DNA from: Mycobacteriales bacterium
GTDB lineage: Bacteria > Actinomycetota > Actinomycetes > Mycobacteriales > SCTD01
DNA: 64,000 nucleotides
Direction of reading: 5' to 3'
NCBI GenBank assembly: GCA_035540755.1
Contig: DATLGD010000223.1
Span: forward strand, 152-64,151
The notes under the pieces: model-generated
Told to the model about the DNA's origin: nothing
The model's input: only the letters and a program-made list of their open reading frames with translations
Databases searched by the model: none
Position numbers and translations under genes: made by a program
In this document: piece after piece, positions 48,080-63,048 of the stretch
Numbering within the stretch: the first letter of the stretch is position 1
Layout: each line of letters begins with the position of its first letter

Positions 48080-48904
48080 TCACGGCCGCAGGCGGTCGGC
48101 CCTGGTGTAGACGTTCATCGACGCCCCGCGCAGGAAGCCGATCAGGGTCATCCCGGCCTCGTCGGCCAGGTCGACGGCCAGCGAGCTCGGCGCGCTGACG
48201 GCCGCGAGCACCGGGATGCCGGCCATCCACGCCTTCTGCGCCAGCTCGAACGAGGCGCGGCCGCTGACCAGCAGCACCGTCTCCCGCAGCGGCAGGAGGC
48301 CCTCCCGCAGGGCCCACCCGACGACCTTGTCGACGGCGTTGTGCCGGCCGACGTCCTCGCGCAGGCACAGCAGCTCGCCGTTCGGGTCGAACAGGCCGGC
48401 GCCGTGCAGGCCGCCGGTGCGGTCGAAGACCCGTTGCGCCTCGCGCAGCCGGTCCGGCAGTGCGGCCAGCACCGCGCGGTCGACCGTGACGGGGTCGTCG
48501 GCCACCGGCCACCGGGCGGTCGTGCGCACGGCGTCCAGGCTCGCCTTGCCGCACACGCCGCAGCTGGAGGTCGTGTAGAACGCCCGCTCGACCGAGGGGT
48601 CCGGAGCCGGCACCTCCGGCGCGAGCGCGACGTCGAGGACGTTGTAGGTGTTGGCGCCGTCCGAGGTGGCTCCCGCGCAGTAGCGCTGCGCCGCGACGTG
48701 CTCCGCGGCGCTCACCACCCCCTCGCTGACGAGGAAGCCCGCCGCGAGGTCCATGTCGCTGCCCGGGGTGCGCATGGTCACCGCCAGCGGCCGGCCGCCG
48801 ACCCGGATCTCCAGCGGTTCCTCGACGACGAGGGTGTCGGGACGCTCGACGTCGATGTCGCCGCCCAGGCGCAGCACGCGGCGTCGCGTCGTCGTCCGTC
48901 CCAC
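48080..48904 (-). CDS. fdhD: formate dehydrogenase accessory sulfurtransferase FdhD
   Basis: Last 274 aa of ORF 48080..49312 from GTG 48904 ([13 protein letters not shown]...). SSCGVCGK active-site loop and [11 protein letters not shown] motif. Confidence 0.85.
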
Positions 48905-49013
48905 GGGCAGAGCGTTGCACTTCGGGTCGGCGCACGGCGGGTCGGGTGGTGCGCGTGACGAGGGGTGGGGGAGGGTAGGGCCGCGGCACGCCGGCACGGG
49001 ACGAGGAGCGCGC

Positions 49014-52000
49014 ATGGGTCTGAAGGACACCTTCCTGGGGTGGCCCGTCCTGCGGCAGCTCACCGGCGACGACCCGCTCGGCCGCGGCACTGCCGTGCAG
49101 TCCGCGCGCTCGGCGTCGCTGCAGCCGCGCACCGCGACCGCCGACCGGGTGGTGCGGAGCGTGTGCCCGTACTGCGCCGTCGGCTGCGGGCAGAAGGTGT
49201 TCGTCAAGGACGAGAAGGTCGTGCAGATCGAGGGCGACCCCGACTCCCCGGTCTCCCGCGGCCGGCTGTGCCCCAAGGGCGCGGCCAGCGAGCAGTTCGT
49301 CAACGGCGCCAAGCGCGTGACGACCGTGCGCTACCGGCGTCCCGGCGGCACCGACTGGGAGGACCTCGACCTCGACACGGCGATGGAGATGATCGCCGAC
49401 CGCGTCGTCGAGACCCGCGCCCGCACCTGGCAGGACGTCGACGACCAGGGCCGCAAGGTCCGCCGCACCCTCGGGTTCGCCTCGCTCGGCGGGGCGACGC
49501 TGGACAACGAGGAGAACTACCTCATCAAGAAGCTGTTCACGGCGATGGGGGCGATCCAGGTCGAGAACCAGGCCCGGATATGACACAGCGCCACCGTCCC
49601 CAGTCTGGGGGCCTCCTTCGGTCGTGGCGGCGCCACGAACTTCCTGCAGGACCTGCAGCACAGCGACTGCATCGTCATCCAGGGCTCGAACATGGCCGAG
49701 TGCCACCCGGTCGGCTTCCAGTGGGTGCTCGAGGCCAAGGCGCGCGGTGCGAAGGTCATCCACATCGACCCGCGCTTCACCCGCACGTCGGCGCTGGCTG
49801 ACAGCCACGTCCCGCTGCGCGCCGGCAGCGACATCGCCTTCCTCGGCGGCGTCATCAACCACATCCTGTCGACGGAGTCGTACTTCCGCGAGTACGTCGT
49901 GGCGTACACCAACGCGGCGACGATCGTCGGCGAGGACTTCCAGGACACCGAGGACCTCGACGGGCTGTTCTCCGGCTACGACCCCGAGACCGCCACGTAC
50001 GACACCGAGAGCTGGGGCTACCAGCACTCGCCGGGCGGTCCGGCCGACGCGCAGGAGAACGACGACGAGAGCGCCCTGTCCGAGCGGAAGCGCGCGGCGG
50101 GTCACGAGCTCGGCGGCCACGGCGCGACGCTCGAGGGCTACGACGTCGAGCGCGACGAGACGCTCCAGCACCCGCGCTGCGTCTTCCAGGTGCTCAAGCG
50201 GCACTACGCCCGCTACACCCCGGAGGTCGTGGAGGAGGTCTGCGGCGTGCCGCAGCACCTGTTCCGCGAGGTGTGCGAGGCGGTCGTGGCCAACAGCGGC
50301 CGCGAGCGCACGACGGCGTGGGTCTACTCGGTCGGCTGGACCCACCACTCCACCGGTGTGCAGTACATCCGCGGGTCGGCGATTATCCAGCTGCTGCTCG
50401 GCAACATGGGCCGTCCAGGCGGCGGCATCCTGGCGCTGCGCGGGCACGCGAGCATCCAGGGCTCGACCGACATCCCGACCCTCTACAACATCTTGCCGGG
50501 CTACCTGCCGATGCCCAAAGCGGGGGAGCACGACGACTTCGGGGACTACCTCGAGGCGATCCACGAGCCGGGGCAGAAGGGCTTCTGGGCCAACGCCGAC
50601 GCCTACGTCGTCAGCCTGCTCAAGGCCTACTGGGGAGAGGCGGCGACACCGGACAACGGCTTCTGCTTCGACTACCTGCCGAGGCTGACCGGCGACCACG
50701 GCACCTACCGCACCGTGATGGACATGGTCGACGGCAAGGTCGAGGGCTACTTCCTCGTCGGGCAGAACCCGGCCGTCGGCTCCGCGCACGGGAAGCTGCA
50801 GCGGCTCGGCATGGCGAACCTGAAGTGGCTCGTCGTGCGCGACGTGAACATGATCGAGTCGGCGACGTTCTGGAAGGACGGGCCGGAGATCGCGACCGGC
50901 GAGCTGCGCACCGAGGACATCGACACCGAGGTGTTCTTCCTCCCGGCCGCCACGCACGTGGAGAAGGCCGGCACGTTCACGCAGACGCAGCGGATGCTGC
51001 AGTGGCGGCACAAGGCGATCGACCCACCGGGTGACTGCCGGCCCGAGCTGGACTTCTACTACAAGCTCGGCGTCCTGGTGCGCGAGCGGCTCGCCGGGTC
51101 GACGCTCGAGCGCGACCGGCCGGTGCTCGACCTCGCCTGGGACTACCCGGTCGACGAGCACGGCGAGCCCGACGCCGAGTCGGTGCTGGCCGAGATCAAC
51201 GGCCGGTTCCTGACCGGACCCCGCGCGGGCCAGCCGCTCGACGGCTTTACCGACATGCGCGCCGACGGCTCCACCGACGGCGGCTGCTGGATCTACAGCG
51301 GCGTCTACAAGGACGGCGTCAACCAGTCGGCGCGACGCAAGCCGCACACCGAGCAGGACTGGGTCGCGAACGAGTGGGGTTGGGCCTGGCCGATGGACCG
51401 GCGCACCCTCTACAACCGCGCCTCGGCAGACCCGGACGGCAGGCCGTGGAGCGAGCGCAAGGCCTACGTCTGGTGGGACGAGGAGCAGCAGCGCTGGACC
51501 GGGCACGACGTGCCGGACTTCATCGCCGACCGGCCGCCGTCCTACCGGCCGGGGGAGGGGGCAACCGGCGTCGACGCACTGGCCGGTGACGACCCGTTCG
51601 TCATGCAGGGCGACGGCAAGGGCTGGCTGTTCGCCTCGACGGGTCTGCTCGACGGGCCGCTGCCGGCCCACTACGAGCCGCACGAGTCGCCGGTCGTCAA
51701 CCCGCTGTACGCCCAGCAGGGGAACCCCACGCGGCAGGTGTTCCGGCGCGAGGACAACCCGTCGAACCCCTCGGCCACCGAGCGGGGCGGCGACGTCTTC
51801 CCGTACGTCTTCACCACCTACCGGCTCACCGAGCACCACACCGCCGGCGGCATGAGCCGGTGGGTGCCGTACCTGTCCGAGCTGCAGCCGGAGTTCTTCT
51901 GCGAGGTCTCGCCGGAGCTCGCCCGCGAACGCGGTCTCGAGCACCTCGGCTGGGCGACCATCACGACCGCGCGCACCGCCATCGAGGCGCGGGTGCTGGT

Positions 52001-52316
52001 CACCGACCGCATGGTGCCGCTGCACGTCGGCGGCAAGGTGATCCACCAGATCGGGTTGCCGTACCACTGGGGTGTCGGGGACGACGCCGTCGTCAGTGGC
52101 GACTCGGCGAACGACCTGTTCGGCCTGGCGCTCGACCCGAACGTGCACATCCAGGAGAGCAAGGTGGCCAGCTGCGACATCACGCCGGGACGCCGGCCGA
52201 CCGGCCCCGCTCTGCTCCGGCATGTCGAGCGGTACCGCGACCGCGCCGGCATCACGACGGCCACCGGCAACTTCCGCAGCGACGCCGAGCCCCGACCCGC
52301 AGGAGAAGCCCGATGA
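49014..52316 (+). CDS. fdhA: formate dehydrogenase catalytic subunit (Mo/W-bisPGD), selenocysteine-containing; TGA 49581-49583 read as Sec
   Basis: ORFs 48753..49583 and 49692..52316 are in the same frame (starts both divisible by 3). ATG 49014 follows GAGGAG. Motifs: CPYCAVGCG 4Fe-4S motif; read-through gives [28 protein letters not shown], which parallels the Sec site of E. coli FdnG; [10 protein letters not shown]. Confidence 0.9.
49584..49633 (+). promoter_or_regulatory. candidate bacterial SECIS stem-loop immediately 3' of the Sec TGA
   Basis: Inner hairpin GTCCCCA-GTC-TGGGGGC (49596-49612) starts 12 nt after the TGA. An outer helix pairs GCGCC (49588-49592) with GGCGC (49629-49633). 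The apical sequence CAGUCUG resembles the fdhF CAGGUCUG loop. Confidence 0.5.
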
Positions 52317-53338
52317 GCAGCAGCAACAGCCTGTTCGGGCCCCTCGACCCGGCGCCCGACGCGGGCTGGACCGAGGCGCCGCCGCGCAAGGGGTTCTTCA
52401 CCGACACCTCCATCTGCATCGGCTGCAAGGCCTGCGAGGTGGCGTGCAAGGAGTGGAACGCCGTCCCGGACGACGGCATGCAGCTGCTCGGCTCCTCCTA
52501 CGACAACACCGGTGCCCTCGGCGCGAGCACCTGGCGGCACGTCGCCTTCATCGAGCAGCCGAAGCCGCTCGGGGCGCAGGAGCCGGGCATGGCCGGCACC
52601 GCCGCCGGCCCGCCCGCGACCGACGTGCTGAACCGGACCGCGGAGAGCGCGCTGGCCGGCGACCGGAGCAAGCTCGGCACCGACAGCACGGCCGTCGACC
52701 TCGGCATGCCGGGCACGCAGCTGCCCGGCGAGGCCGATGGCGCGCAGCGCAGCGAGTTCCGCTGGCTGATGGCCTCCGACGTCTGCAAGCACTGCACGCA
52801 CGCAGGCTGCCTGGACGTCTGCCCGACGGGGGCGCTGTTCCGCACCGAGTTCGGCACGGTCGTGGTGCAGGACGACATCTGCAACGGCTGCGGCTACTGC
52901 GTGGCCGCATGCCCCTTCGGCGTCATCGACCGGCGGGTGGGGGACAAGGGCGTCACCAAGAACGCCGGCATCGCGCAGAAGTGCACGCTCTGCTACGACC
53001 GGCTCGGCGACGGGCTGCAGCCGGCCTGCTCGAAAGCATGCCCGACCACCAGCATCCAGTTCGGCGACCTCGACGAGCTTCAGGAGCGCGCGCAGAGGCG
53101 GGTCGAGCAGCTGCACGAGGCAGGCGTCACGTCGGCCCGGCTGTACGGCGAGGACGAGAACGACGGCGTCGGGGGCGTGGGGGCGTTCTTCCTGCTGCTC
53201 GACGAGCCGGAGGTCTACGGGCTGCCGCCGGACCCGGTCGTCACGACCAAGGACCTGCCGGCCATGTGGCGGCAGGCCGGGCTCGCCGCCCTGACGATGC
53301 TCGCCGGCGCCGTCGCGGTGTTCGGGGTGCGCCGGTGA
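52313..53338 (+). CDS. formate dehydrogenase Fe-S (4x[4Fe-4S]) subunit with a C-terminal TM anchor
   Basis: ATG 52313 (ATGA overlap with fdhA). Cys clusters CIGCKACEVAC, CKHCTHAGCLDVCP, CNGCGYCVAACP, CTLCYDR...CSKACP. C-terminal helix AGLAALTMLAGAVAVFGV. Confidence 0.9.
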   Translation: MSSSNSLFGPLDPAPDAGWTEAPPRKGFFTDTSICIGCKACEVACKEWNAVPDDGMQLLGSSYDNTGALGASTWRHVAFIEQPKPLGAQEPGMAGTAAGPPATDVLNRTAESALAGDRSKLGTDSTAVDLGMPGTQLPGEADGAQRSEFRWLMASDVCKHCTHAGCLDVCPTGALFRTEFGTVVVQDDICNGCGYCVAACPFGVIDRRVGDKGVTKNAGIAQKCTLCYDRLGDGLQPACSKACPTTSIQFGDLDELQERAQRRVEQLHEAGVTSARLYGEDENDGVGGVGAFFLLLDEPEVYGLPPDPVVTTKDLPAMWRQAGLAALTMLAGAVAVFGVRR

Positions 53339-54450
53339 CGGCGACCTCCCCGCGCGACCCGGTCGGCACGCCGAGCACCGGGCCGGAGGCTTCCGCGGTC
53401 CCCGGTTCCGCGGGTCGGCACAAGGACAAGGGCAAGGGCAAGGGCAGGGGTGGGCGCGGCGACAAGAACGCGGTCGTGCCGCCGGCGGAGTTCACCTCGT
53501 ACTACGGGCGCCCCGTCGTCAAGGCCTCGCCGTGGGAGCACGACATCCCCGCCTACCTGTTCCTGGGCGGCGTGGCCGCCGGCTCGTCACTGCTGGCCGC
53601 CGGGGCCGACCTGACCGGCCGACCGGCGCTGCGCCGGACCGGTCGGCTGGCGTCGCTGGTGGGTCTGACGCTGAGCATGCTGGCGCTGGTCAAGGACCTC
53701 GGTCGCCCCGAGCGCTTCCACCACATGCTGCGCGTGGTGAAGCCGACGTCGCCGATGTCGGTGGGCACCTGGCTGCTGACGCTCTACGGCCCGTTCGCCG
53801 GGCTCGCCGCCGCCGGGGAGCTGCGCGGGCTGCTGCCGAGGCGACTGCGCGACGGCGTGGCCGGCCGGCTGCTCGGCGCCTCTGCCCGCCCGGCGGGGCT
53901 GACAGCCGCCGTCGTCGCGCCCACGATCGCGTCCTACACCGCCGTGCTGCTGTCCGACACCGCCACGCCCACCTGGCACGACGCGCACCGGCACCTGCCG
54001 TTCGTGTTCGTCGGCTCGGCCGCGGCCGCCTCCGGCGGGCTCGGGATGATCGGTGCGCCGGTCCACGAGGCCGGGCCGGCCCGGCGCCTGGCCATCGGCG
54101 GTGCGCTGCTCGAGCTGGCCGTCGAGCGCAGGATGGAGCAGGCGATGGGGCTGACCGCCGAGCCGCTCCACCAGGGGCACGCAGGACAGCTCATGCGGGC
54201 CAGCAAGGTGCTCACCGCCGCCGGCGCGGCCGGGGCGCTGCTGCTCGGCGGACGCAGCCGCACCGCGGCCGCGGTGTCCGGCGCGGCGCTGATGGCCGGA
54301 TCCGCCTGCCTGCGCTTCGGGTTCTTCGACGCGGGGCAGGACAGCGCCCGCGACCCCAAGTACACCGTCGTCCCGCAGCGCGAGCGCCTCGAGCGCGGCG
54401 AGGCGGTCCGGCACGGGGGTTCCCGCCCGTCCGCCGAACCCGAGAGGTAG
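53335..54450 (+). CDS. NrfD/PsrC-like polytopic membrane subunit
   Basis: GTG 53335 (GTGA overlap with fdhB). After a basic low-complexity N-terminus come about 8 TM segments (WEHDIPAYLFLGGVAAGSSLLAA...) typical of NrfD-family quinone-interacting subunits. The exact start is uncertain. Confidence 0.75.
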   Translation: MTATSPRDPVGTPSTGPEASAVPGSAGRHKDKGKGKGRGGRGDKNAVVPPAEFTSYYGRPVVKASPWEHDIPAYLFLGGVAAGSSLLAAGADLTGRPALRRTGRLASLVGLTLSMLALVKDLGRPERFHHMLRVVKPTSPMSVGTWLLTLYGPFAGLAAAGELRGLLPRRLRDGVAGRLLGASARPAGLTAAVVAPTIASYTAVLLSDTATPTWHDAHRHLPFVFVGSAAAASGGLGMIGAPVHEAGPARRLAIGGALLELAVERRMEQAMGLTAEPLHQGHAGQLMRASKVLTAAGAAGALLLGGRSRTAAAVSGAALMAGSACLRFGFFDAGQDSARDPKYTVVPQRERLERGEAVRHGGSRPSAEPER

Positions 54451-54453
54451 CCG

Positions 54454-55878
54454 ATGTCCCTGGTCTCCTTCCTGGACCGTGAGCACTCCGTCGCTCCCGC
54501 CGGGTACAGCCGATGGCTGGTGCCGCCGGCGGCGCTGGCCATCCACCTGTCGATCGGCCAGGTCTACGCGCTGAGCGTCTTCAAGACCCCGCTGGTCGAG
54601 CGGTTCGAGACCAGCGAGACAGCGATCGCCATCGTGTTCTCGATCGCGATCGTGATGCTGGGGCTGTCCGCCGCCTTCGGCGGGACGTGGATGGAGCGCA
54701 ACGGTCCGCGCAAGGCCATGGCCCTGTCGGCGGTCTGCTTCGTCACGGGGCTGCTGGTCGGCGGCCTCGGGATCGCCACCGGCCAGCTGTGGCTGCTCTA
54801 CCTGGGTTACGGGGTCATCGGCGGCATCGGGCTCGGGTTGGGCTACATCTCGCCGGTCTCGACGCTCATCAAGTGGTTCCCCGACCGTCCCGGACTCGCG
54901 ACCGGGCTGGCCATCATGGGCTTCGGCGGCGGCGCGTTCATCGCCTCCAACCTGTCGAACGAGCTGCTCGGCGCCTACACCTCGCTGCCGGCGGACGCCG
55001 TGCCGACCGACGCGGTGGCGCCGGCCTTCTTCACCCTGGCGCTGATCTACGCGCTGTTCATGACCTTCGGCGTGCTCACCGTGCGCGTCCCGCGCGACGG
55101 CTGGAAGCCCGAGGGGTACGAGCCCAAGGCCGACAGCGGCGGGCTGCGCACCACCGCGCACGTGGCCGCGAGCGAGTCCATCAAGACCCCGCAGTTCTGG
55201 CTGCTCTGGACGATCCTGTTCTGCAACGTCACCGCCGGCATCGGCATCATCGAGCAGGCCTCGCCGATGATCCGGGACTTCTTCCCGGACGACGTCAGCC
55301 CGGCCGCGGCGGCCGGCTTCGTCGGACTGCTGTCGCTGGCCAACATGGCCGGGCGCATCGTCTGGTCGTCGACGTCCGACGCCATCGGCCGCAAGCCGAC
55401 CTACATGCTCTACACCGGCGTCGGAGCCGTCGCGTTCTTCTTCCTGGCCACGGCGGGCGACACCAGCGTCCTGCTGTTCGTGGTGCTGGCGGCGGTCATC
55501 CTGAGCTTCTACGGCGGTGGCTTCGCGACGATCCCCGCCTACCTCAAGGACCTGTTCGGCACCTTCCAGGTGGGTGCCATCCACGGCCGGCTGCTGACGG
55601 CCTGGTCCGCCGCCGGCGTCGCGGGTCCGCTCATCGTCAACGGCATCATCGAGCGCCAGCGCGACGCCGGGGTCGAGGGGGCGGCGACCTACCGGCCGGC
55701 GCTGCTGGTGATGGTCGGCCTGCTCAGCATCGGCTTCGTGGCGAACCTGCTCGTGCGCCGGGTGGCCGACAGGCACCACGCCAGCGCCGACGTCCTGGGC
55801 ACCTATCCGGGCGTCACCAGCCAGCAGACCACCGGATCCGCGAAGACGGCCCCGAGCGCCTCAGGAGGCACCCGATGA
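54454..55878 (+). CDS. MFS transporter, oxalate/formate antiporter (OFA) family
   Basis: ORF 54454..55878. Twelve TMs. N-terminal RWLVPPAALAIHLSIGQVYALSVF and LGYGVIGGIGLGLGYISPVSTLIKWFPDRPGLATG are OFA-family signatures. Confidence 0.85.
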   Translation: MSLVSFLDREHSVAPAGYSRWLVPPAALAIHLSIGQVYALSVFKTPLVERFETSETAIAIVFSIAIVMLGLSAAFGGTWMERNGPRKAMALSAVCFVTGLLVGGLGIATGQLWLLYLGYGVIGGIGLGLGYISPVSTLIKWFPDRPGLATGLAIMGFGGGAFIASNLSNELLGAYTSLPADAVPTDAVAPAFFTLALIYALFMTFGVLTVRVPRDGWKPEGYEPKADSGGLRTTAHVAASESIKTPQFWLLWTILFCNVTAGIGIIEQASPMIRDFFPDDVSPAAAAGFVGLLSLANMAGRIVWSSTSDAIGRKPTYMLYTGVGAVAFFFLATAGDTSVLLFVVLAAVILSFYGGGFATIPAYLKDLFGTFQVGAIHGRLLTAWSAAGVAGPLIVNGIIERQRDAGVEGAATYRPALLVMVGLLSIGFVANLLVRRVADRHHASADVLGTYPGVTSQQTTGSAKTAPSASGGTR

Positions 55879-55997
55879 GCGAGCAGTACAGCGGCGTCAA
55901 GGCGCGCCTGGTCGGAGCGTGGCTGTTCGTGGGCATCCCGCTCGCCTACGGCATCGTGCAGACCGTCCGCCGGGCCGCCGCCCTGTTCACCGGCTAG
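55875..55997 (+). CDS. 40-aa single-TM microprotein translationally coupled to the OFA transporter
   Basis: ATG 55875 (ATGA overlap), AGGAGG 7 nt upstream. MSEQYSGVKARLVGAWLFVGIPLAYGIVQTVRRAAALFTG. Confidence 0.5.
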   Translation: MSEQYSGVKARLVGAWLFVGIPLAYGIVQTVRRAAALFTG

Positions 55998-56977
55998 CGG
56001 ACCTCGACCACCGCGTCGCGCCGGGCGACCACCTCGCCGACGATCGGTGCGCCCGGCACCTCGCCGACGACGAGCAGGCCACCGCTGGTCTGCGCGTCGG
56101 CGAGCAGCAGCAGCTCGTCCTCCTCGACGGATGCCGACAGGTGCGGGCGCACCCAGTCGAGGTTGCGCCGGGTGCCGCCGCTGACGTAGCCGTCGGCCAG
56201 CGAGCTGCGCGCACCGTCGAGGTAGGGCACGGCGGCGGCGTCGACGACGGCCGTGGTGCCGCTGGCGCGCATCATCTTGAACAGGTGCCCGAGCAGGCCG
56301 AAGCCGGTGACGTCGGTGGCCGCGCGTGCCCCGCTCTCCACCGCAGCCCGGGCGGCGTCGCGGTTCAGGCGCGTCATGCACTCGACCGCGTGCTCGAACC
56401 GCTCGCCGGTCGCCTTGTGCCGGTTGTTGAGCACGCCGACGCCGAGCGGCTTGGTGAGGCTGAGCGGCCGGCCCGGCTCGGCGGCGTCGTTGCGCAGCAG
56501 CGCGCCCGGGTCGACGACCCCGGTGACCGCCATGCCGTACGTCGGCTCGGGCCCGTCGACGCTGTGGCCGCCGGCGACCGGGCAGGCGGCCTGCCGGGCG
56601 ACGTCGGCGCCGCCGCGCAGCACCTCGCCGAGCAGCTCGGCCGGCAGCAGCTCGCGCGGCCAGGCGACCAGGTTGATGGCGACGACCGGCCGGCCGCCCA
56701 TCGCGTACACGTCCGACAGCGCATTGGCCGCCGCGATGCGACCCCAGTCGTAGGCGTCGTCGACCACCGGGGTGAAGAAGTCGGCCGTGCTGACGACGGC
56801 GGTGCGGGCGTCGAGGCGCACGACGGCGGCGTCGTCGCCGTCGTCGAGCCCGACGAGCAGGTCCGGTCCCGCGGCACCGGTCAGCCCGCGCACGGCGTCC
56901 TCGAGCTCACCCGGCGGGATCTTGCAGGCGCAGCCGCCGCCCTTCGCCAGCTGGGTCAGCCGAAGCGTCGTCGTCAC
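55994..56977 (-). CDS. selD: selenide, water dikinase (selenophosphate synthetase), Cys form
   Basis: ORF 55994..56977 (GTG start). Glycine-rich N-terminal loop LAKGGGCACKIPP, then DDAAV and the AIR-synthase-like fold. No in-frame TGA. Confidence 0.9.
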   Translation of the reverse strand: MTTTLRLTQLAKGGGCACKIPPGELEDAVRGLTGAAGPDLLVGLDDGDDAAVVRLDARTAVVSTADFFTPVVDDAYDWGRIAAANALSDVYAMGGRPVVAINLVAWPRELLPAELLGEVLRGGADVARQAACPVAGGHSVDGPEPTYGMAVTGVVDPGALLRNDAAEPGRPLSLTKPLGVGVLNNRHKATGERFEHAVECMTRLNRDAARAAVESGARAATDVTGFGLLGHLFKMMRASGTTAVVDAAAVPYLDGARSSLADGYVSGGTRRNLDWVRPHLSASVEEDELLLLADAQTSGGLLVVGEVPGAPIVGEVVARRDAVVEVR

Positions 56978-57628: not shown

Positions 57629-59089
57629 TCAGGTCCCGCAGAAGGTCCGGTAGGAGCTGTCCTCGGGGCCGGGTGCGGCGTAGCGCTCCAGGCCCGGGCG
57701 CTCGTCGAACGGGGCGGTGACCGCTGTGAGCAGCCGCTGGAGCGGGTCCAGGTCGCCGGCGGTGCCGGCGTCGAGGGCCTCCTCGACGAGGTGGTTGCGC
57801 GGGATGTAGACCGGGTTCACGCGGTCCATCGCCGCTCCGTCGGGCGCGAGGGCCTGCCAGCGCTGCAGCCAGGCGTCGACCGCCGCGAGGTCGAGCACGA
57901 GGCCGCGCGCCGGCTCGGTGTCGCCGCGGGCGGCCTGCCCCAGCGCCCGGAAGAACGAGGTCAGGTCGACGTGGTTGGCCTGCAGCAGGGCCAGCAGCTC
58001 CTCGACGAGCGGGCGGACGACGTCGTCGTCGTCGCCGTCGGTCAGCCCGAGCTTGCGGCGCATGCCGGCCGTCCAGGCGGCGCTGTACTGCGGCCGGTAG
58101 CCGCCGAGCGACTCGACGGCGAGGGCGATGGCCTGCTCCTCGTCGTCGTGCAGCAGCGGCAGCATCGCCTCCACCAGCCTGGCCAGGTTCCACTCGGCGA
58201 CGACCGGCTGGTTGCCGTAGGCGTACCGGCCGCCGGTGTCGATCGAGCTGAACACCCGGGCCGGGTCGAAGGCGTCGAGGAAGGCGCAGGGGCCGTAGTC
58301 GATGGTCTCGCCGGAGATCGTGGTGTTGTCGGTGTTCATGACCCCGTGGACGAAGCCGACGAGCATCCACTGCGCCACCAGAGACGCCTGCGCGGTGACG
58401 ACCGCCTCGAACAGGGCGCGGTAGGGCTGCTCGGCGTCGGCGGCCTCGGGATGGTGCCGGGCGATGGCGTGGTCGGCCAGCCGGCGCAGCAGCGCGACGT
58501 CGCCGGTCGCGCGGGCGTACTGGAAGGTGCCCACGCGCAGGTGGCTGCTCGCGACCCGGGCGAGCACCGCTCCGGGCAGCGGCGTCTCGCGCCGCACCGT
58601 GCGGCCGGTGCCGACGACGGCCAGGGCCCGGGTGGTCGGGATCCCGAGCGCGTGCATCGCCTCGGCGACGACGTGCTCGCGCAGCATCGGACCGACCGCG
58701 GCCAGGCCGTCGCCGCCACGGGCGAAGGGGGTGCGCCCGCTGCCCTTGAGGTGCAGGTCGCGCGGTCGACCGTCCTGGCAGGCGAACTCGCCGAGCAGCA
58801 GCGCCCGACCGTCACCGAGTCGCGGGTTGAAGCCGCCGAACTGGTGCCCGGCGTACGCCTGCGCCACCGGTGTGGCGCCGTCGAGCACCAGCGTCCCGAC
58901 CAGGAAGCGCAGCCCCTCGGAGGTGCGCAGCCAGTCGGGGTCCAGGCCGAGCTCGACGGCCAGCGGCTCGTTCAGCACCAGCAGCCGCGGATCCGGCGCG
59001 TCCTCGGCCTGCCAGCGCACCGCCAGCTCGGGCAGCTCGCGGGCGAAGCGGTCGTCGAGCAGCGTGCGGGGCACGGCGGGGACGTTCAT
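57629..59089 (-). CDS. selO: SelO/YdiU-family protein adenylyltransferase (AMPylase), Cys form
   Basis: In ORF 57629..59122. ATG 59089 preferred, GTG 59122 possible. [61 protein letters not shown]-terminus ...YRTFCGT. Confidence 0.9.
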
Positions 59090-59167
59090 CGTCCGACGGT
59101 ACGTGCCGGCCGGTTGTGGCACCCTGCACGTCGGTCACGGACGAGCGCTCGGTGCGGTCGTGGTCGA

Positions 59168-59260
59168 GGAGGCGTACGCGTGCCTGGTGGCCGTCCCGGT
59201 CTTCAAAACCGGTGTGGGCGAGGATCTCGTCCAGGTGGGTTCGATCCCCATCCGCCTCCG
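59168..59260 (+). tRNA. selC: tRNA-Sec (anticodon UCA)
   Basis: Hand fold: acceptor GGAGGCG/CGCCTCC (7 bp); 6-bp D-stem with one bulge and a UGGU loop; anticodon arm CCGGU-CUUCAAA-ACCGG; long variable arm GGGCGAG-GAU-CUCGUCC; T-arm GGUGGG-UUCGAUC-CCCAUC (6 bp); discriminator G. The acceptor plus T helix totals 13 bp. CCA is not encoded. Confidence 0.9.
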
Positions 59261-59349
59261 CCGACGAGTTGCCGTCCGGGCCGGTTCCGCCGCCCTCGGC
59301 GCGGGCAGACCGTCGCCGACGCGCACGACCGACGACGCGAGGAGACACC

Positions 59350-59514
59350 GTGGGGCTGCTGGGCGGGATGATCAAGGCCGGCGTGGCCAAGAAGGTCTAC
59401 GACGAGGCGCGCAAGCCGCACAACCAGGCGAAGATCAAGCAGATGCTGTCGAAGGCGACGGGCAAGGGGTCGGGCGGGACAGGCAGCAGCGGCCCGGGCG
59501 CCGGGCAGCCCTGA
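59350..59514 (+). CDS. small Lys-rich protein (54 aa), hypothetical
   Basis: GTG 59350 with GAGGAG 6 nt upstream. VGLLGGMIKAGVAKKVYDEARKPHNQAKIKQMLSKATGKGSGGTGSSGPGAGQP. A Lys-rich composition with high GC3 is unlikely for a shadow frame. Confidence 0.35.
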   Translation: MGLLGGMIKAGVAKKVYDEARKPHNQAKIKQMLSKATGKGSGGTGSSGPGAGQP

Positions 59515-59943: not shown

Positions 59944-61257
59944 GTGACAGCGGTCGAGCCGGACCGGCGACGCGCGGTGCCGCGCACCGACGCCGTGCTC
60001 GCCGACCCGCGCCTGGCGCGGGCCGCCGAGCGGCTCGGACGCGAGCGGGTGAAGCGAGCCGTCCGCGAGGCTCAGGACGCCGTCCGCACGGGCCGGCTGG
60101 CGCCCGACCAGGTGGCCGACGCCGCCGTCGCCGCTCTGCCGCCCCGCACCACGACGCTGCGGCCGGTGCTGAACGCCACCGGCGTGGTCGTGCACACCAA
60201 CCTCGGCCGGGCGCCGCTGTCGGCCGCGGCCGTCGAGGCGCTGCAGACCGCCGCCGGCAACGTCGACGTCGAGTACCACGTCGCCACCGGCCAGCGGGCG
60301 CGGCGCGGTCGGGGCGCGCTCGCCGCCCTGCACGCCGCCGTCCCCGACGCCGAGGCGGTGCACGTGGTCAACAACGGGGCGGCCGCCCTCGTGCTCGCGA
60401 CCACGGCGCTCGCCGCCGGCCGCGAGGTGGTGGTCAGCCGCGGCGAGATGGTCGAGATCGGCGACGGCTTCCGGCTCCCGGACCTCATCGCGTCCACCGG
60501 CGCCCGCCTGCGCGAGGTCGGCACCACCAACCGCACCACAGTGAGCGACTACGCCGACGCCGTGGGCCCGGACACCGGCTGCGTGCTCAAGGTGCACCCC
60601 AGCAACTTCCGGGTGGCCGGCTTCACCGGCGCTGTGGACGTCGCCGAGCTCGCCGGGCTCGACGTTCCCGTCGTCGTCGACATCGGCAGCGGCCTGCTCG
60701 CGCCGCACCCGCTGCTGCCCGACGAGCCGGACGCGCGGACGGCGCTGCGCGGCGGGGCCGAGGTCGTCACCGCGAGCGGCGACAAGCTGCTCGGCGGTCC
60801 GCAGGCCGGGCTGCTCCTCGGTCGCGCGGGCGTCGTCGAGCGGCTGCGCCGGCACCCGCTCGCGCGCGCCCTGCGGGTCGACAAGCTGACGCTGGCTGCG
60901 CTCGAGGCGACGATCGACGGACCGCCCACGCCGGTGCGCCTGGCGCTCGACGCCGACCCTGCCGGGCTGCGCGCGCGGGCGGACGCGCTCGCCGCCGACG
61001 TCGGGGGCGACGTCGTCCCGAGCGACGGCGCGGTCGGAGGCGGCGGGGCACCCGGCCTGCTCCTGCCCGGCTGGGCGGTGGCCCTCCCGGAGGACCGTGC
61101 TCCCGACGCCTGGGCGCTCGCGCTGCGCACCGGCGAGCCCTGCGTGGTCGGGCGGGTCGAGCGCGGCCGGTGCCTGCTCGACCTGCGCTGCATCGCCCCG
61201 GCCGACGACGCGTCGGTCGCGGCGGCCGTCACCGCCGCCGCCGGCGCGGCGGGGTAG
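59944..61257 (+). CDS. selA: L-seryl-tRNA(Sec) selenium transferase
   Basis: ORF 59944..61257 (GTG start). LRPVLNATGVVVHTNLGRAPL, VVNNGAAALVL, PLP-lysine region ASGDKLLGGPQAG. Confidence 0.9.
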   Translation: MTAVEPDRRRAVPRTDAVLADPRLARAAERLGRERVKRAVREAQDAVRTGRLAPDQVADAAVAALPPRTTTLRPVLNATGVVVHTNLGRAPLSAAAVEALQTAAGNVDVEYHVATGQRARRGRGALAALHAAVPDAEAVHVVNNGAAALVLATTALAAGREVVVSRGEMVEIGDGFRLPDLIASTGARLREVGTTNRTTVSDYADAVGPDTGCVLKVHPSNFRVAGFTGAVDVAELAGLDVPVVVDIGSGLLAPHPLLPDEPDARTALRGGAEVVTASGDKLLGGPQAGLLLGRAGVVERLRRHPLARALRVDKLTLAALEATIDGPPTPVRLALDADPAGLRARADALAADVGGDVVPSDGAVGGGGAPGLLLPGWAVALPEDRAPDAWALALRTGEPCVVGRVERGRCLLDLRCIAPADDASVAAAVTAAAGAAG

Positions 61258-61260
61258 CGC

Positions 61261-63048
61261 GTGCACGTCGTCGCGACCGCCGGGCACGTCGACCACGGCA
61301 AGTCCACGCTGGTGCGCGGGCTGACCGGCACCGAGCCGGACCGCTGGGCCGAGGAGCGGCGCCGCGGCATGACCATCGACCTCGGCTACGCCTGGACCGA
61401 GCTGCCGAGCGGTGAGCAGGTCGCGTTCGTCGACGTCCCCGGCCACGCCCGCTTCGTCGGCAACATGCTCGCCGGGCTCGGGCCCGCGCCGGCCGTGCTG
61501 TTCGTCGTCGCCGCCGACGAGGGCTGGCGCCGGCAGTCCGGCGAGCACCTCGCCGCCGTCGACGCGCTCGGCCTGTCGGCGGGTCTGCTGGCGGTGACCC
61601 GCAGCGACCTCGCCGACCCCGCCCCCGCGATCGAGGAGGCGAGGGAGCACCTGTCCCGCAGCAGCCTCGGCGACGTCGAGGCGGTCGCGGTGTCGGGTCA
61701 GACCGGCGCCGGACTGGACGTGCTGCGCGCCGCCCTCGACCGGCTGGTCGCCCGGCTCCCGGTGCCCGACACCGTCGGGCCGGTCCGGCTGTGGGTCGAC
61801 CGCGCCTTCACCGTGCGCGGTGCCGGCACGGTGGTCACCGGCACCCTGGGCGCCGGTGCGCTCGCCGTCGGCGACGAGCTCGAGCTGCGCGGGCGCCGGG
61901 TGCGGGTGCGCGGCCTGCAGTCGCTCGAGCAGCCCCGGGAGCGGATGGGTGCGGTGGCGCGCGTGGCGGTGGCGCTGCGCGGCGTCGAGCGCGCCGACGT
62001 CGGCCGCGGGGACGCCCTGCTCGCCCCGGGACGGTGGCGGGCCGCTTCGACGCTCGACGTGCGGCTCCGGCCCGCGGGCACCCTGCCCGAGCGGCTGGTG
62101 CTGCACGTCGGCACGGCGGCGGTGCCGGTGCGGCTGCGGCCGCTGCGCGACGACCTCGCGCGGCTGCAGCTCAGCACTGCGCTGCCGCTGCGGGCCGGCG
62201 ACCGCGCCCTGCTACGCGACCCGGCGGCGCAAGAGGTGGCCGCGGGCGTCACGGTCCTGGACGCCGACCCGCCGGACCTCCGTCGGCGCGGGTCGGCCCG
62301 CGAGCGCGCTGCCGTGCTCGCCGGGACGACCGGCCCGCCGGACGGGATCGCGGAGGTGGAGCGCCGAGGCGCGGTGCGCCGCGCCGACCTCGAGGCGCTG
62401 GGCGTGCCGGTCCCCGACGGCGGGCGCAGTGCCGGCGGCTGGCTGGTCAGCGAGCAGCGGTGGCAGGTCTGGCGGGCCGAGCTGCGCCGGGTCGTCGAGC
62501 AGCACGACGCCGTGGCGCCGCTGGACCGGGGGCTGCCGCACGACGCCGCACGGCGCGCCGCCGGCATCCCCGACCTCGCCGTGCTCGCTGCGGTGGCCGG
62601 GGACGCCGAGCTCGTCGACGAGGCGGGCCGGCTGCGCAGCACGCAGGAGCTCGGCCTGGGGTCGGCCGAGCCCGGGGTCCGGGCGCTGGAGGAGCGGCTG
62701 ACCGCCGGCCCCTTCGCCGCACCGGAGCGGCCGGACCTCGACGCGCTCGGCCTCGACGTCCGCGCGGTCGCCGCCGCCGCCGCCGCCGGCCGGCTGCTGC
62801 GGCTGCGCGCCTCCGACGGCGGCGACGTCGTGCTGCTGCCCGACGCGCCGGCGCGGGCGATGCGCGAGCTCGCCCGGCTGCCCCAGCCGTTCTCGCTCAG
62901 CGCCGCCCGCCAGGCCCTCGGCACGACGCGGCGGGTGGCCGTCCCGCTGCTCGAGCACCTCGACGCGCGCGGCTGGACCCGCCGGGTCGACAGCTCCGCG
63001 CGCGAGGTGGTGCGCGGCGGGAGTGCGGCGTCGGGCCCGCCCCGATAG
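61261..63048 (+). CDS. selB: selenocysteine-specific translation elongation factor
   Basis: ORF 61261..63048 (GTG start, 3 nt after selA). G domain [21 protein letters not shown]-terminal winged-helix extension. Confidence 0.9.

Follow-up and report, generated by a model that had tools for sequence, protein, structure and literature searches.

Does the in-frame TGA at 49581..49583 end one gene, or is it an internal codon of a longer one? Within the window analysed here (the whole stretch of 64,000 nucleotides), we estimate a probability of about 95% that one gene spans 49014-52316 and encodes the catalytic alpha subunit of a formate dehydrogenase (FDH) of the molybdenum/tungsten bis-pyranopterin type, with UGA at codon 190 decoded as selenocysteine (Sec).

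49014..52316, + strand: fdhA, formate dehydrogenase alpha subunit, 1100 residues including Sec190 (translation, NF041513, TIGR01553, PDB, Pfam)
49581..49583, + strand: UGA selenocysteine codon, codon 190, next base C (translation, PDB alignment, related loci)

Translation of 49014-52316 yielded 1101 codons, with codon 190 as the sole internal stop and the terminal stop at 52314-52316. The initial annotation had joined two ORFs of the same frame, 48753..49583 and 49692..52316, into a read-through protein of about 1100 aa, and this holds: both are present in the ORF list, the peptide cited around the TGA matches the translation exactly, and 1100 codons run from the ATG at 49014 with only the TGA at 49581-49583 interrupting them. 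This ATG is the real fdhA start, preceded by GGAG and with the NCBIfam profile match beginning at residue 7, and what ORF 48753..49583 contains 5′ of it is noncoding sequence antisense to fdhD. The truncation anticipated from a standard gene caller is found on a 99.8% identical ENA contig of metagenome origin, reached via a selD look-up (34 mismatches in 18 kb), on which products of 189 aa and 874 aa are called; searching for the exact sequence of the 874-aa fragment returned no match. Third-codon positions are ~95% G/C across 14 genes sampled in the window. Two other same-frame, high-GC3 ORF pairs (33040-33810/33811-35616 and 28098-28484/28485-29729) were considered as hidden selenoproteins and rejected, both being unrelated neighbouring genes.

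Comparison with known families places the TGA at the catalytic position. The read-through protein matched NF041513 ("formate_DH_Act"), an NCBIfam "exception" model for actinobacterial formate dehydrogenase, over its full length (1982.2 bits, cutoff 1400; residues 7-1076 on model positions 3-1066/1067), and exceeded the cutoff of TIGR01553 (967 bits, cutoff 814.2). Pfam PF04879, PF00384 and PF01568, covering molybdopterin and dinucleotide-binding domains, all scored above gathering, and the [4Fe-4S] cysteines C51/C54/C58/C86 form a CxxCxxxC...C motif. In the PDB, FdhA matched 1h0h_A (E 1.5e-216) and 1kqf_A (E 5.8e-207), and both alignments pair the Sec, His and Arg residues. A parallel with the catalytic Sec of E. 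coli FdnG had been proposed, and the TGA indeed falls on the "x" of QARVxHGPTV in 1kqf_A, as well as on the "x" (Sec) column of QARIxHSATV in D. gigas FDH (1h0h_A). The catalytic His191 directly follows Sec190, and Arg476 aligns with FdnG R446.

We compared 80 related loci, drawn from at least 595 matches in Actinomycetota and Dormibacterota, for a total of 81 loci with that of the window. The best genome match to FdhA was to Frankiales MAGs, with its first 337 residues 84% identical. The Sec column is an in-frame stop in 80/80 relatives (TGA in 73, TAG in 7) and Cys in none, with the residues on both sides conserved as ENQAR[IV]*HS and an invariant C as the +4 base after UGA. Because the stop lies at the same column in every relative, the TGA is not a chance event. 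Conserved coding sequence follows the stop in all of them. The arrangement named in advance as refuting a selenocysteine codon, two separate genes in close relatives, was seen in none. Geodermatophilaceae relatives have changed to TAG at this column, and their tRNA-Sec anticodon is reported to have changed along with the codon (PMC5330540). No tRNA-Sec(CUA) was found within the 6-kb flanks of the seven TAG-bearing loci, and the link between TAG and the anticodon in that family is taken from the literature (PMC5330540).

Directly downstream of the TGA, the RNA forms a conserved hairpin.

49596..49612, + strand: SECIS apical hairpin, 7 bp, G16 to C32 with the U of UGA as position 1, 15 nt past TGA (fold, RNAalifold, covariation, Rfam)

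Its loop is G23-U24-C25 (49603-49605), 19 nt past UGA, and the centroid of the single-sequence fold has an energy of -11.2 kcal/mol. Against shuffled sequences, the folding energy of the single sequence was no better (z = 0.15 to 0.69), and comparative evidence was therefore used instead, since in coding sequence of 75% GC a SECIS is not distinguishable from background by its stability. RNAalifold on the 81 sequences independently predicted the apical hairpin, with covariation. The hairpin is kept in 81/81 loci, and Val/Gly wobble positions within it show compensatory changes; 99.2% of cells are paired, compared with 27-63% in slid registers. Pair 18/30 occurs as CG, UA, UG, GU and GC with 0 mismatches and 32 double-sided changes, and the observed covariation was reached in 0 of 500 shuffles. 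U24, a third-codon position, is T in 81/81 loci, against an A/T background of 7.6% at third positions in these genomes of 65-75% GC. The MFE fold of the window's own sequence also contains an extended lower stem (8-15 with 46-53), which was rejected as not conserved: it is 78.6% paired across relatives, and three of its pairs are broken in ~40-55% of sequences. The Infernal check suggested with the initial annotation was borne out in part: a permissive search of 161 bases placed SECIS_3 on 49578-49639 in the register of the predicted hairpin (25.1 bits, E 7.9e-4), though below the gathering score of 63, and at Rfam gathering thresholds no SECIS was matched, tRNA-Sec being the only match. Criteria of the bSECISearch type, which Zhang and Gladyshev reportedly set out in 2005, ask for a stem-loop just 3′ of the UGA, an apical loop ~16-37 nt downstream and a G starting the loop; the 7-bp stem G16-C32 with loop G23-U24-C25 fits this description. 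We read the hairpin at 49596-49612 as the SECIS, with SelB as its predicted ligand.

The genes for Sec decoding, which had been placed within 14 kb, are all present within 13.5 kb, above curated cutoffs.

55994..56977, - strand: selD, selenide, water dikinase, Cys-type GGGCACK (TIGR00476 388.8 bits, cutoff 125)
59168..59262, + strand: selC, tRNA-Sec with anticodon UCA (ARAGORN; Rfam RF01852 71.9 bits, gathering 47, full length)
59944..61257, + strand: selA, selenocysteine synthase (TIGR00474 413.2 bits, cutoff 267.9)
61261..63048, + strand: selB, Sec-specific elongation factor (TIGR00475 272.2 bits, cutoff 242.25)

SelB carries the C-terminal winged-helix SECIS-binding domain, with Pfam PF09107 (SelB-wing_3) at residues 537-577 together with PF25461.

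Two other readings of the TGA have to be weighed against this evidence. Were it a true stop, the locus would be a pseudogene or two separately expressed genes, one for a 189-aa Fe-S domain protein and one for an 874-aa molybdopterin protein; exactly these two products are called automatically on the near-identical contig, and UGA is the usual stop in high-GC actinobacteria (PMC13449736). Yet the 36 codons from the TGA to the next ATG (49584-49691) would then be noncoding, although the 19 of them covered by the alignment (49584-49640), which include the catalytic His, are conserved in 81 loci. A true stop is also at odds with the covariation of the SECIS hairpin, the complete sel set adjoining fdhA and the end-to-end match to a curated full-length model, while retention of the stop in 80/80 relatives argues against a decaying pseudogene. 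We consider termination at this codon extremely improbable.

A near-cognate tRNA (Cys or Trp) might instead account for most of the read-through, for instance when selenium is limiting, giving a sulfur-containing or inactive enzyme. Low-level misreading of UGA is a general phenomenon, and the fdhA sequence itself lends this reading no support. Against it, the genes for a dedicated tRNA-Sec(UCA), SelA, SelB with its SECIS-binding domain and SelD all lie close to fdhA. Moreover, no relative has switched to Cys though one base change would suffice, which points to selection for Sec itself, and the joint change of codon and tRNA-Sec anticodon in Geodermatophilaceae makes sense only with dedicated decoding. 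We thus regard near-cognate reading as very unlikely, and selenocysteine at codon 190 as the preferred interpretation.

How this selenocysteine would be inserted and used can be outlined by inference from the E. coli system. SelD would supply selenophosphate, with which SelA would convert Ser-tRNA-Sec (selC, UCA) to Sec-tRNA-Sec. SelB-GTP carrying Sec-tRNA-Sec would bind the hairpin (loop G23-U24) through its C-terminal winged-helix domain and place Sec in the ribosomal A site, competing there with RF2. In the folded enzyme, Sec190 would ligate the Mo/W centre next to His191 and Arg476, the cofactor being sulfurated, presumably, by FdhD. The reading frame, the identity of the Sec column, the family assignment, the conserved and covarying hairpin and the four sel genes are observed directly; we infer actual selenium insertion at codon 190, as we do the metal, the quinone partner and whether formate is oxidized inside or outside the membrane. 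The genes around fdhA are as follows.

48080..48877, - strand: fdhD, accessory sulfurtransferase, divergent from fdhA (NF001943 396.8 bits, cutoff 269; 265 aa called on the near-identical contig)
52313..53338, + strand: fdhB, four-cluster ferredoxin-type beta subunit (Pfam Fer4_11 and related families; gene call on the near-identical contig)
53335..54450, + strand: NrfD/PsrC-type integral membrane subunit (Pfam PF03916, 1.6e-18, and PF14589; gene call)
54454-55878, + strand: MFS transporter, oxalate/formate-lactate family (NF049980 338 bits, cutoff 320; TIGR00890 subthreshold; gene call)
55875-55997, + strand: 40-aa "MFS transporter small subunit" (NF047966 59.2 bits, cutoff 24; gene call)

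The fdhB start overlaps the fdhA stop (ATGA), and the hydrophobic C-terminus of FdhB reads as a membrane helix. FdhB scored 171 bits against TIGR01582, under its cutoff of 334.7, and an FdnI-type cytochrome b is absent as third gene, that gene being of the NrfD/PsrC type (PF03916, PF14589); for these two reasons the complex is not a strict FdnGHI orthologue. The NrfD/PsrC-type subunit is presumed to be the quinone-reducing anchor in place of FdnI cytochrome b, and electrons from formate would pass from the FdhA [4Fe-4S] cluster through four FdhB clusters to this membrane subunit, which would hand them to the quinone pool.

The N-terminus of FdhA is degenerate, polar and Tat-like. Inspection of this sequence for a twin-arginine signal found no RR and no hydrophobic core, Pfam TAT_signal gave no match at E ≤ 1, and an RRxFL-like string is present in only 6/78 relatives. 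As a weaker possibility, by analogy with NarG, an enzyme with such a degenerate Tat-like leader may face the cytoplasm.

The codons preceding the UGA are also unusual.

49575..49580, + strand: 5′ context codons CGG-ATA, Arg188-Ile189 (codon counts)

Of the 152 codons for Ile that were sampled in the window, ATA189 is the only ATA. Across the 81 loci, codon -1 is ATT in 57, ATA in 20, GTT in 3 and ATC in 1, i.e., of the rare A/U-ending type in 80/81, while Ile elsewhere in fdhA is ATC in 1582 cases (94%), ATT in 69 and ATA in 29; codon -2 is CGT in 44/81 loci. Such A/U-ending codons could make termination by RF2 less effective or cause the ribosome to pause, letting SelB engage the SECIS. It is conceivable, if rather doubtful, that selection maintains them as part of the recoding signal, and that this is particular to Actinomycetota and Dormibacterota of high GC. 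If true, the role of the 5′ codons would exceed the classical model of a UGA plus downstream hairpin. A literature search on the role of the codon preceding UGA found nothing relevant.

The fdhA locus itself is a textbook, already known case, its family being covered by NCBIfam NF041513 and by published literature; FdhA is the most widespread bacterial selenoprotein and is usually clustered with sel genes (PMC1794560). In practice, a single selenoprotein annotation carrying a translational exception at codon 190 should replace the 189-aa and 874-aa calls; left unmerged, they would cause the formate-oxidising capacity and selenium requirement of the organism to be overlooked. Gene callers that take selenoproteins into account could also be checked on this locus, as a clean positive control from a very high-GC genome.

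Among known systems, the closest likeness is to the actinobacterial Sec-containing membrane-bound FDHs, whose members include the enzymes of Mycobacterium marinum (PMC13449736) and Rhodococcus equi 103S (alpha/beta/NrfD; PMC13332983). In Actinomycetospora chiangmaiensis, FDH1 (FdhA1 1078 aa) is encoded by the same kind of cluster, formate removal is selenium-dependent, and FdhA1 has been seen by proteomics (PMC7176365). The likeness extends to length (1064-1089 aa reported, 1100 here), the in-frame UGA with downstream SECIS, the alpha/beta/NrfD-type gene order, the proximity of selA-selB and selC, and the polar, degenerate Tat-like N-terminus, for which signal predictions conflict in the R. 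equi homologue (PMC13332983). There is no difference of substance; here, an OFA/lactate-type MFS gene and its small subunit lie between the FDH genes and selD.

E. coli FdnGHI (1KQF) and FdoGHI are homologous to the present enzyme end to end in the alpha subunit, with Sec196/His197/Arg446 corresponding to Sec190/His191/Arg476, and FdnGHI shares the C-terminal membrane helix of beta. In contrast to FdnGHI, FdhA here lacks a hydrophobic h-region, reads KDTFLGWP in the place of RRxFLK and carries an insertion of ~35 residues at 343-377, FdhB has a long insertion, and the membrane subunit is of the NrfD type rather than the FdnI dihaem cytochrome b. The SECIS of E. coli fdhF has its G23-U24 loop at the same distance from UGA as the hairpin described here. 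The Rfam SECIS_3 (RF01989) consensus, ...CcAGUCUgG..., aligns base-for-base with CCAGUCUGG of this locus, and in both fdhF and SECIS_3 the hairpin begins right after UGA, as it does here. Unlike in these models, U17 is wobble-paired (U-G or U-A) and not bulged, the loop has 3 nt (5 if A22-U26 opens), and the lower stem is poorly conserved; the base preceding UGA is A/U, whereas it is C in the SECIS_3 consensus. By sequence, the best structural relatives are the periplasmic W/Mo-FDHs (FdhAB) of Desulfovibrio/Megalodesulfovibrio (1H0H, 6SDR), identical around Sec (QARIxHSATV). Those enzymes, however, are heterodimers, soluble in the periplasm, that carry a Tat signal and lack a membrane subunit, whereas the locus described here encodes both a beta subunit anchored in the membrane and a subunit of the NrfD type.

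Translated from the ATG at 49014, which is preceded by GGAG, fdhA comprises 1101 codons with a single internal stop, TGA 49581-49583 at codon 190, and a terminal stop at 52314-52316. As described in the initial annotation, the ORF list holds two ORFs in this frame, 48753..49583 (+) and 49692..52316 (+), the first ending at that TGA, and the peptide proposed around the TGA matches the translation exactly. The portion of the first ORF that precedes 49014 overlaps fdhD in antisense orientation and is non-coding, and the family profile match begins at FdhA residue 7. The window has a GC content of 74.6%, with G/C at 96% of fdhA third-codon positions.

Features around fdhA (49014-52316, plus strand), in window coordinates
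48080-48877, minus strand: fdhD, divergent
52313-53338: fdhB, overlapping the fdhA stop
53335-54450: NrfD/PsrC-type membrane protein
54454-55878: MFS transporter, oxalate/formate-lactate family
ending at 55997, plus strand: 40-aa 'MFS transporter small subunit' (NF047966), after the MFS transporter
55994-56977, minus strand: selD
59168-59262, plus strand: tRNA-Sec gene (selC), anticodon UCA
59944-61257, plus strand: selA
61261-63048, plus strand: selB

When searched with Cys in place of residue 190, the read-through protein matched the formate dehydrogenases (FDHs) of D. gigas (1h0h_A, E 1.5e-216) and E. coli (FdnG, 1kqf_A, E 5.8e-207) over the whole length. Position 190 aligned opposite the selenocysteine (Sec, 'x') of both (QARIxHSATV and QARVxHGPTV, respectively), in line with the proposed Sec-coding TGA. 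It is directly followed by His191, while Arg476 aligned with FdnG Arg446, and four Fe-S cysteines (C51/C54/C58/C86) and the three expected Pfam domains were found. The 'exception'-type NCBIfam model NF041513 ('formate_DH_Act') matched end-to-end at 1982 bits (cutoff 1400), so this FdhA family is already curated; the TIGR01553 cutoff was also passed. Residues 343-377, a low-complexity insertion when compared with the E. coli and Desulfovibrio enzymes, form the gap between two HMMER stretches.

Downstream of the stop, a 7-bp hairpin was predicted at G16-C32 (49596-49612; numbered from the U of UGA), whose loop, G23-U24-C25, places G23-U24 in the register of the essential G23/U24 in the E. coli fdhF selenocysteine insertion sequence (SECIS). 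Since single-sequence folding stability (z = 0.15-0.69) is on its own uninformative here, we gathered 80 relatives of the locus, out of at least 595 matches in GTDB species genomes of Actinomycetota and Dormibacterota, and aligned them with the window over 60 nt from the stop codon onward. RNAalifold recovered exactly this hairpin, with 99.2% of hairpin cells paired vs. 27-63% in slid registers, and the observed covariation was reached by 0 of 500 shuffles. Pair 18/30, which joins the wobble positions of Val and Gly codons, showed no mismatches (CG 31, UA 23, UG 11, GU 8, GC 1). U24, at the wobble position of codon +7 (AGT or GGT), is T in 81 of 81 loci, whereas A/T is found at only 7.6% of the third positions of the gene around it; AGT represents 5 of 347 Ser codons sampled in the window. 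Rfam SECIS_3 matched in the same register but scored 25.1, well below its gathering score of 63, and the longer lower stem was not conserved across the aligned loci.

Codon usage is also unusual 5' of the UGA. In the window, the second of the two codons before it (49575-49580) is ATA, the sole ATA among 152 Ile codons sampled from 14 window genes. Across the 81 loci, codon -1 is ATT (57), ATA (20), GTT (3), or ATC (1), compared to 94% ATC for Ile elsewhere in fdhA, and codon -2 (Arg) is CGT in 44. A/U directly 5' of the UGA is thus conserved even though these genomes are 65-75% GC, and differs from the C of the SECIS_3 consensus; no explanation for these rare A/U-ending codons was found in the literature searched.

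An interrupted frame could also correspond to a decaying pseudogene or to a pair of independent genes, and automatic calling does split it: a near-identical ENA metagenome contig (34 differing bases in 18 kb) is annotated with 189-aa and 874-aa products, the truncation anticipated from the sequence. Among the relatives, an in-frame stop occupies the Sec column in 80 of 80 (73 TGA, 7 TAG), Cys in none, and ENQAR[IV]*HS and the next ~20 codons are conserved. This pattern across the relatives rules out both a decaying pseudogene and two independent genes.

TAG replaces TGA, with the same SECIS hairpin, in seven Geodermatophilaceae loci (L052, L053, L054, L055, L062, L071, and L078) from Modestobacter, Geodermatophilus, Blastococcus, and Klenkia. 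This matches a known recoding in which UAG specifies Sec and is read by tRNA-Sec(CUA) (Mukai et al. 2016, as cited in PMC5330540). No tRNA-Sec(CUA) gene lies within the flanks retrieved for these seven loci.

All four Sec-decoding genes reported near fdhA (selA, selB, selC, and selD) were recovered past curated thresholds, and SelB includes a C-terminal winged-helix SECIS-binding domain. Between selD and selC lies a gene (57629-59122, minus strand) for a YdiU/SelO-family protein, a bacterial homologue of selenoprotein O with a Cys-type C-terminus (...FCGT), which ends ~45 bp from the divergent tRNA-Sec gene. Mycobacterial selC is reported to lie immediately upstream of selA; here, the ~680-bp selC-selA gap contains a 54-aa small ORF (MIKAGVAKKVYDEARKPHNQAKIKQMLSKATGKGSGG..., 59350-59514, plus strand), which is annotated as a gene in the near-identical contig but gave no Pfam match.

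The encoded complex is most likely a formate:quinone oxidoreductase, membrane-bound and composed of alpha, beta, and NrfD-type subunits. Strictly speaking, it is no FdnGHI orthologue, because the FDH gene cluster encodes no cytochrome b subunit, FdhB (a ferredoxin with multiple clusters and a hydrophobic helix at its C-terminus) falls below the TIGR01582 cutoff due to a long unaligned stretch, and no canonical Tat signal was found on FdhA. That stretch, FdhB residues ~60-140, is likewise a low-complexity insertion by comparison with the FDHs of E. coli and Desulfovibrio. The FdhA N-terminus (residues 1-49, 49014-49160) has a degenerate twin-arginine (Tat) appearance, with LRRTFLSWPV in some relatives, and lacks a hydrophobic core, recalling the vestigial leader of cytoplasmic NarG. 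With such a leader, FdhA may face either side of the membrane; predictors disagree for the R. equi homologue (PMC13332983). The MFS transporter and its small subunit (54454-55997) directly adjoin the FDH genes with stop/start overlap, a position suggesting substrate import or export tied to formate metabolism.

Taken together, the initial annotation is correct in every checkable respect, and the locus is an ordinary case of something already known and curated. No bacterial selenoprotein is more common than FdhA, whose gene typically sits in a cluster with sel genes (PMC1794560). Sec machinery occurs in ~40% of 244 Mycobacterium genomes, in which FDH is likewise split by automatic annotation into two in-frame genes around the SECIS (PMC13449736), and an alpha/beta/NrfD complex has been modelled for Rhodococcus equi, including discussion of a short polar Tat-like leader (PMC13332983). 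A cluster of the same type in Actinomycetospora chiangmaiensis encodes a 1078-aa FdhA1, beta and gamma subunits, a permease, selA, and selB; there, FdhA1 was seen by proteomics and selenium is needed for formate removal (PMC7176365).
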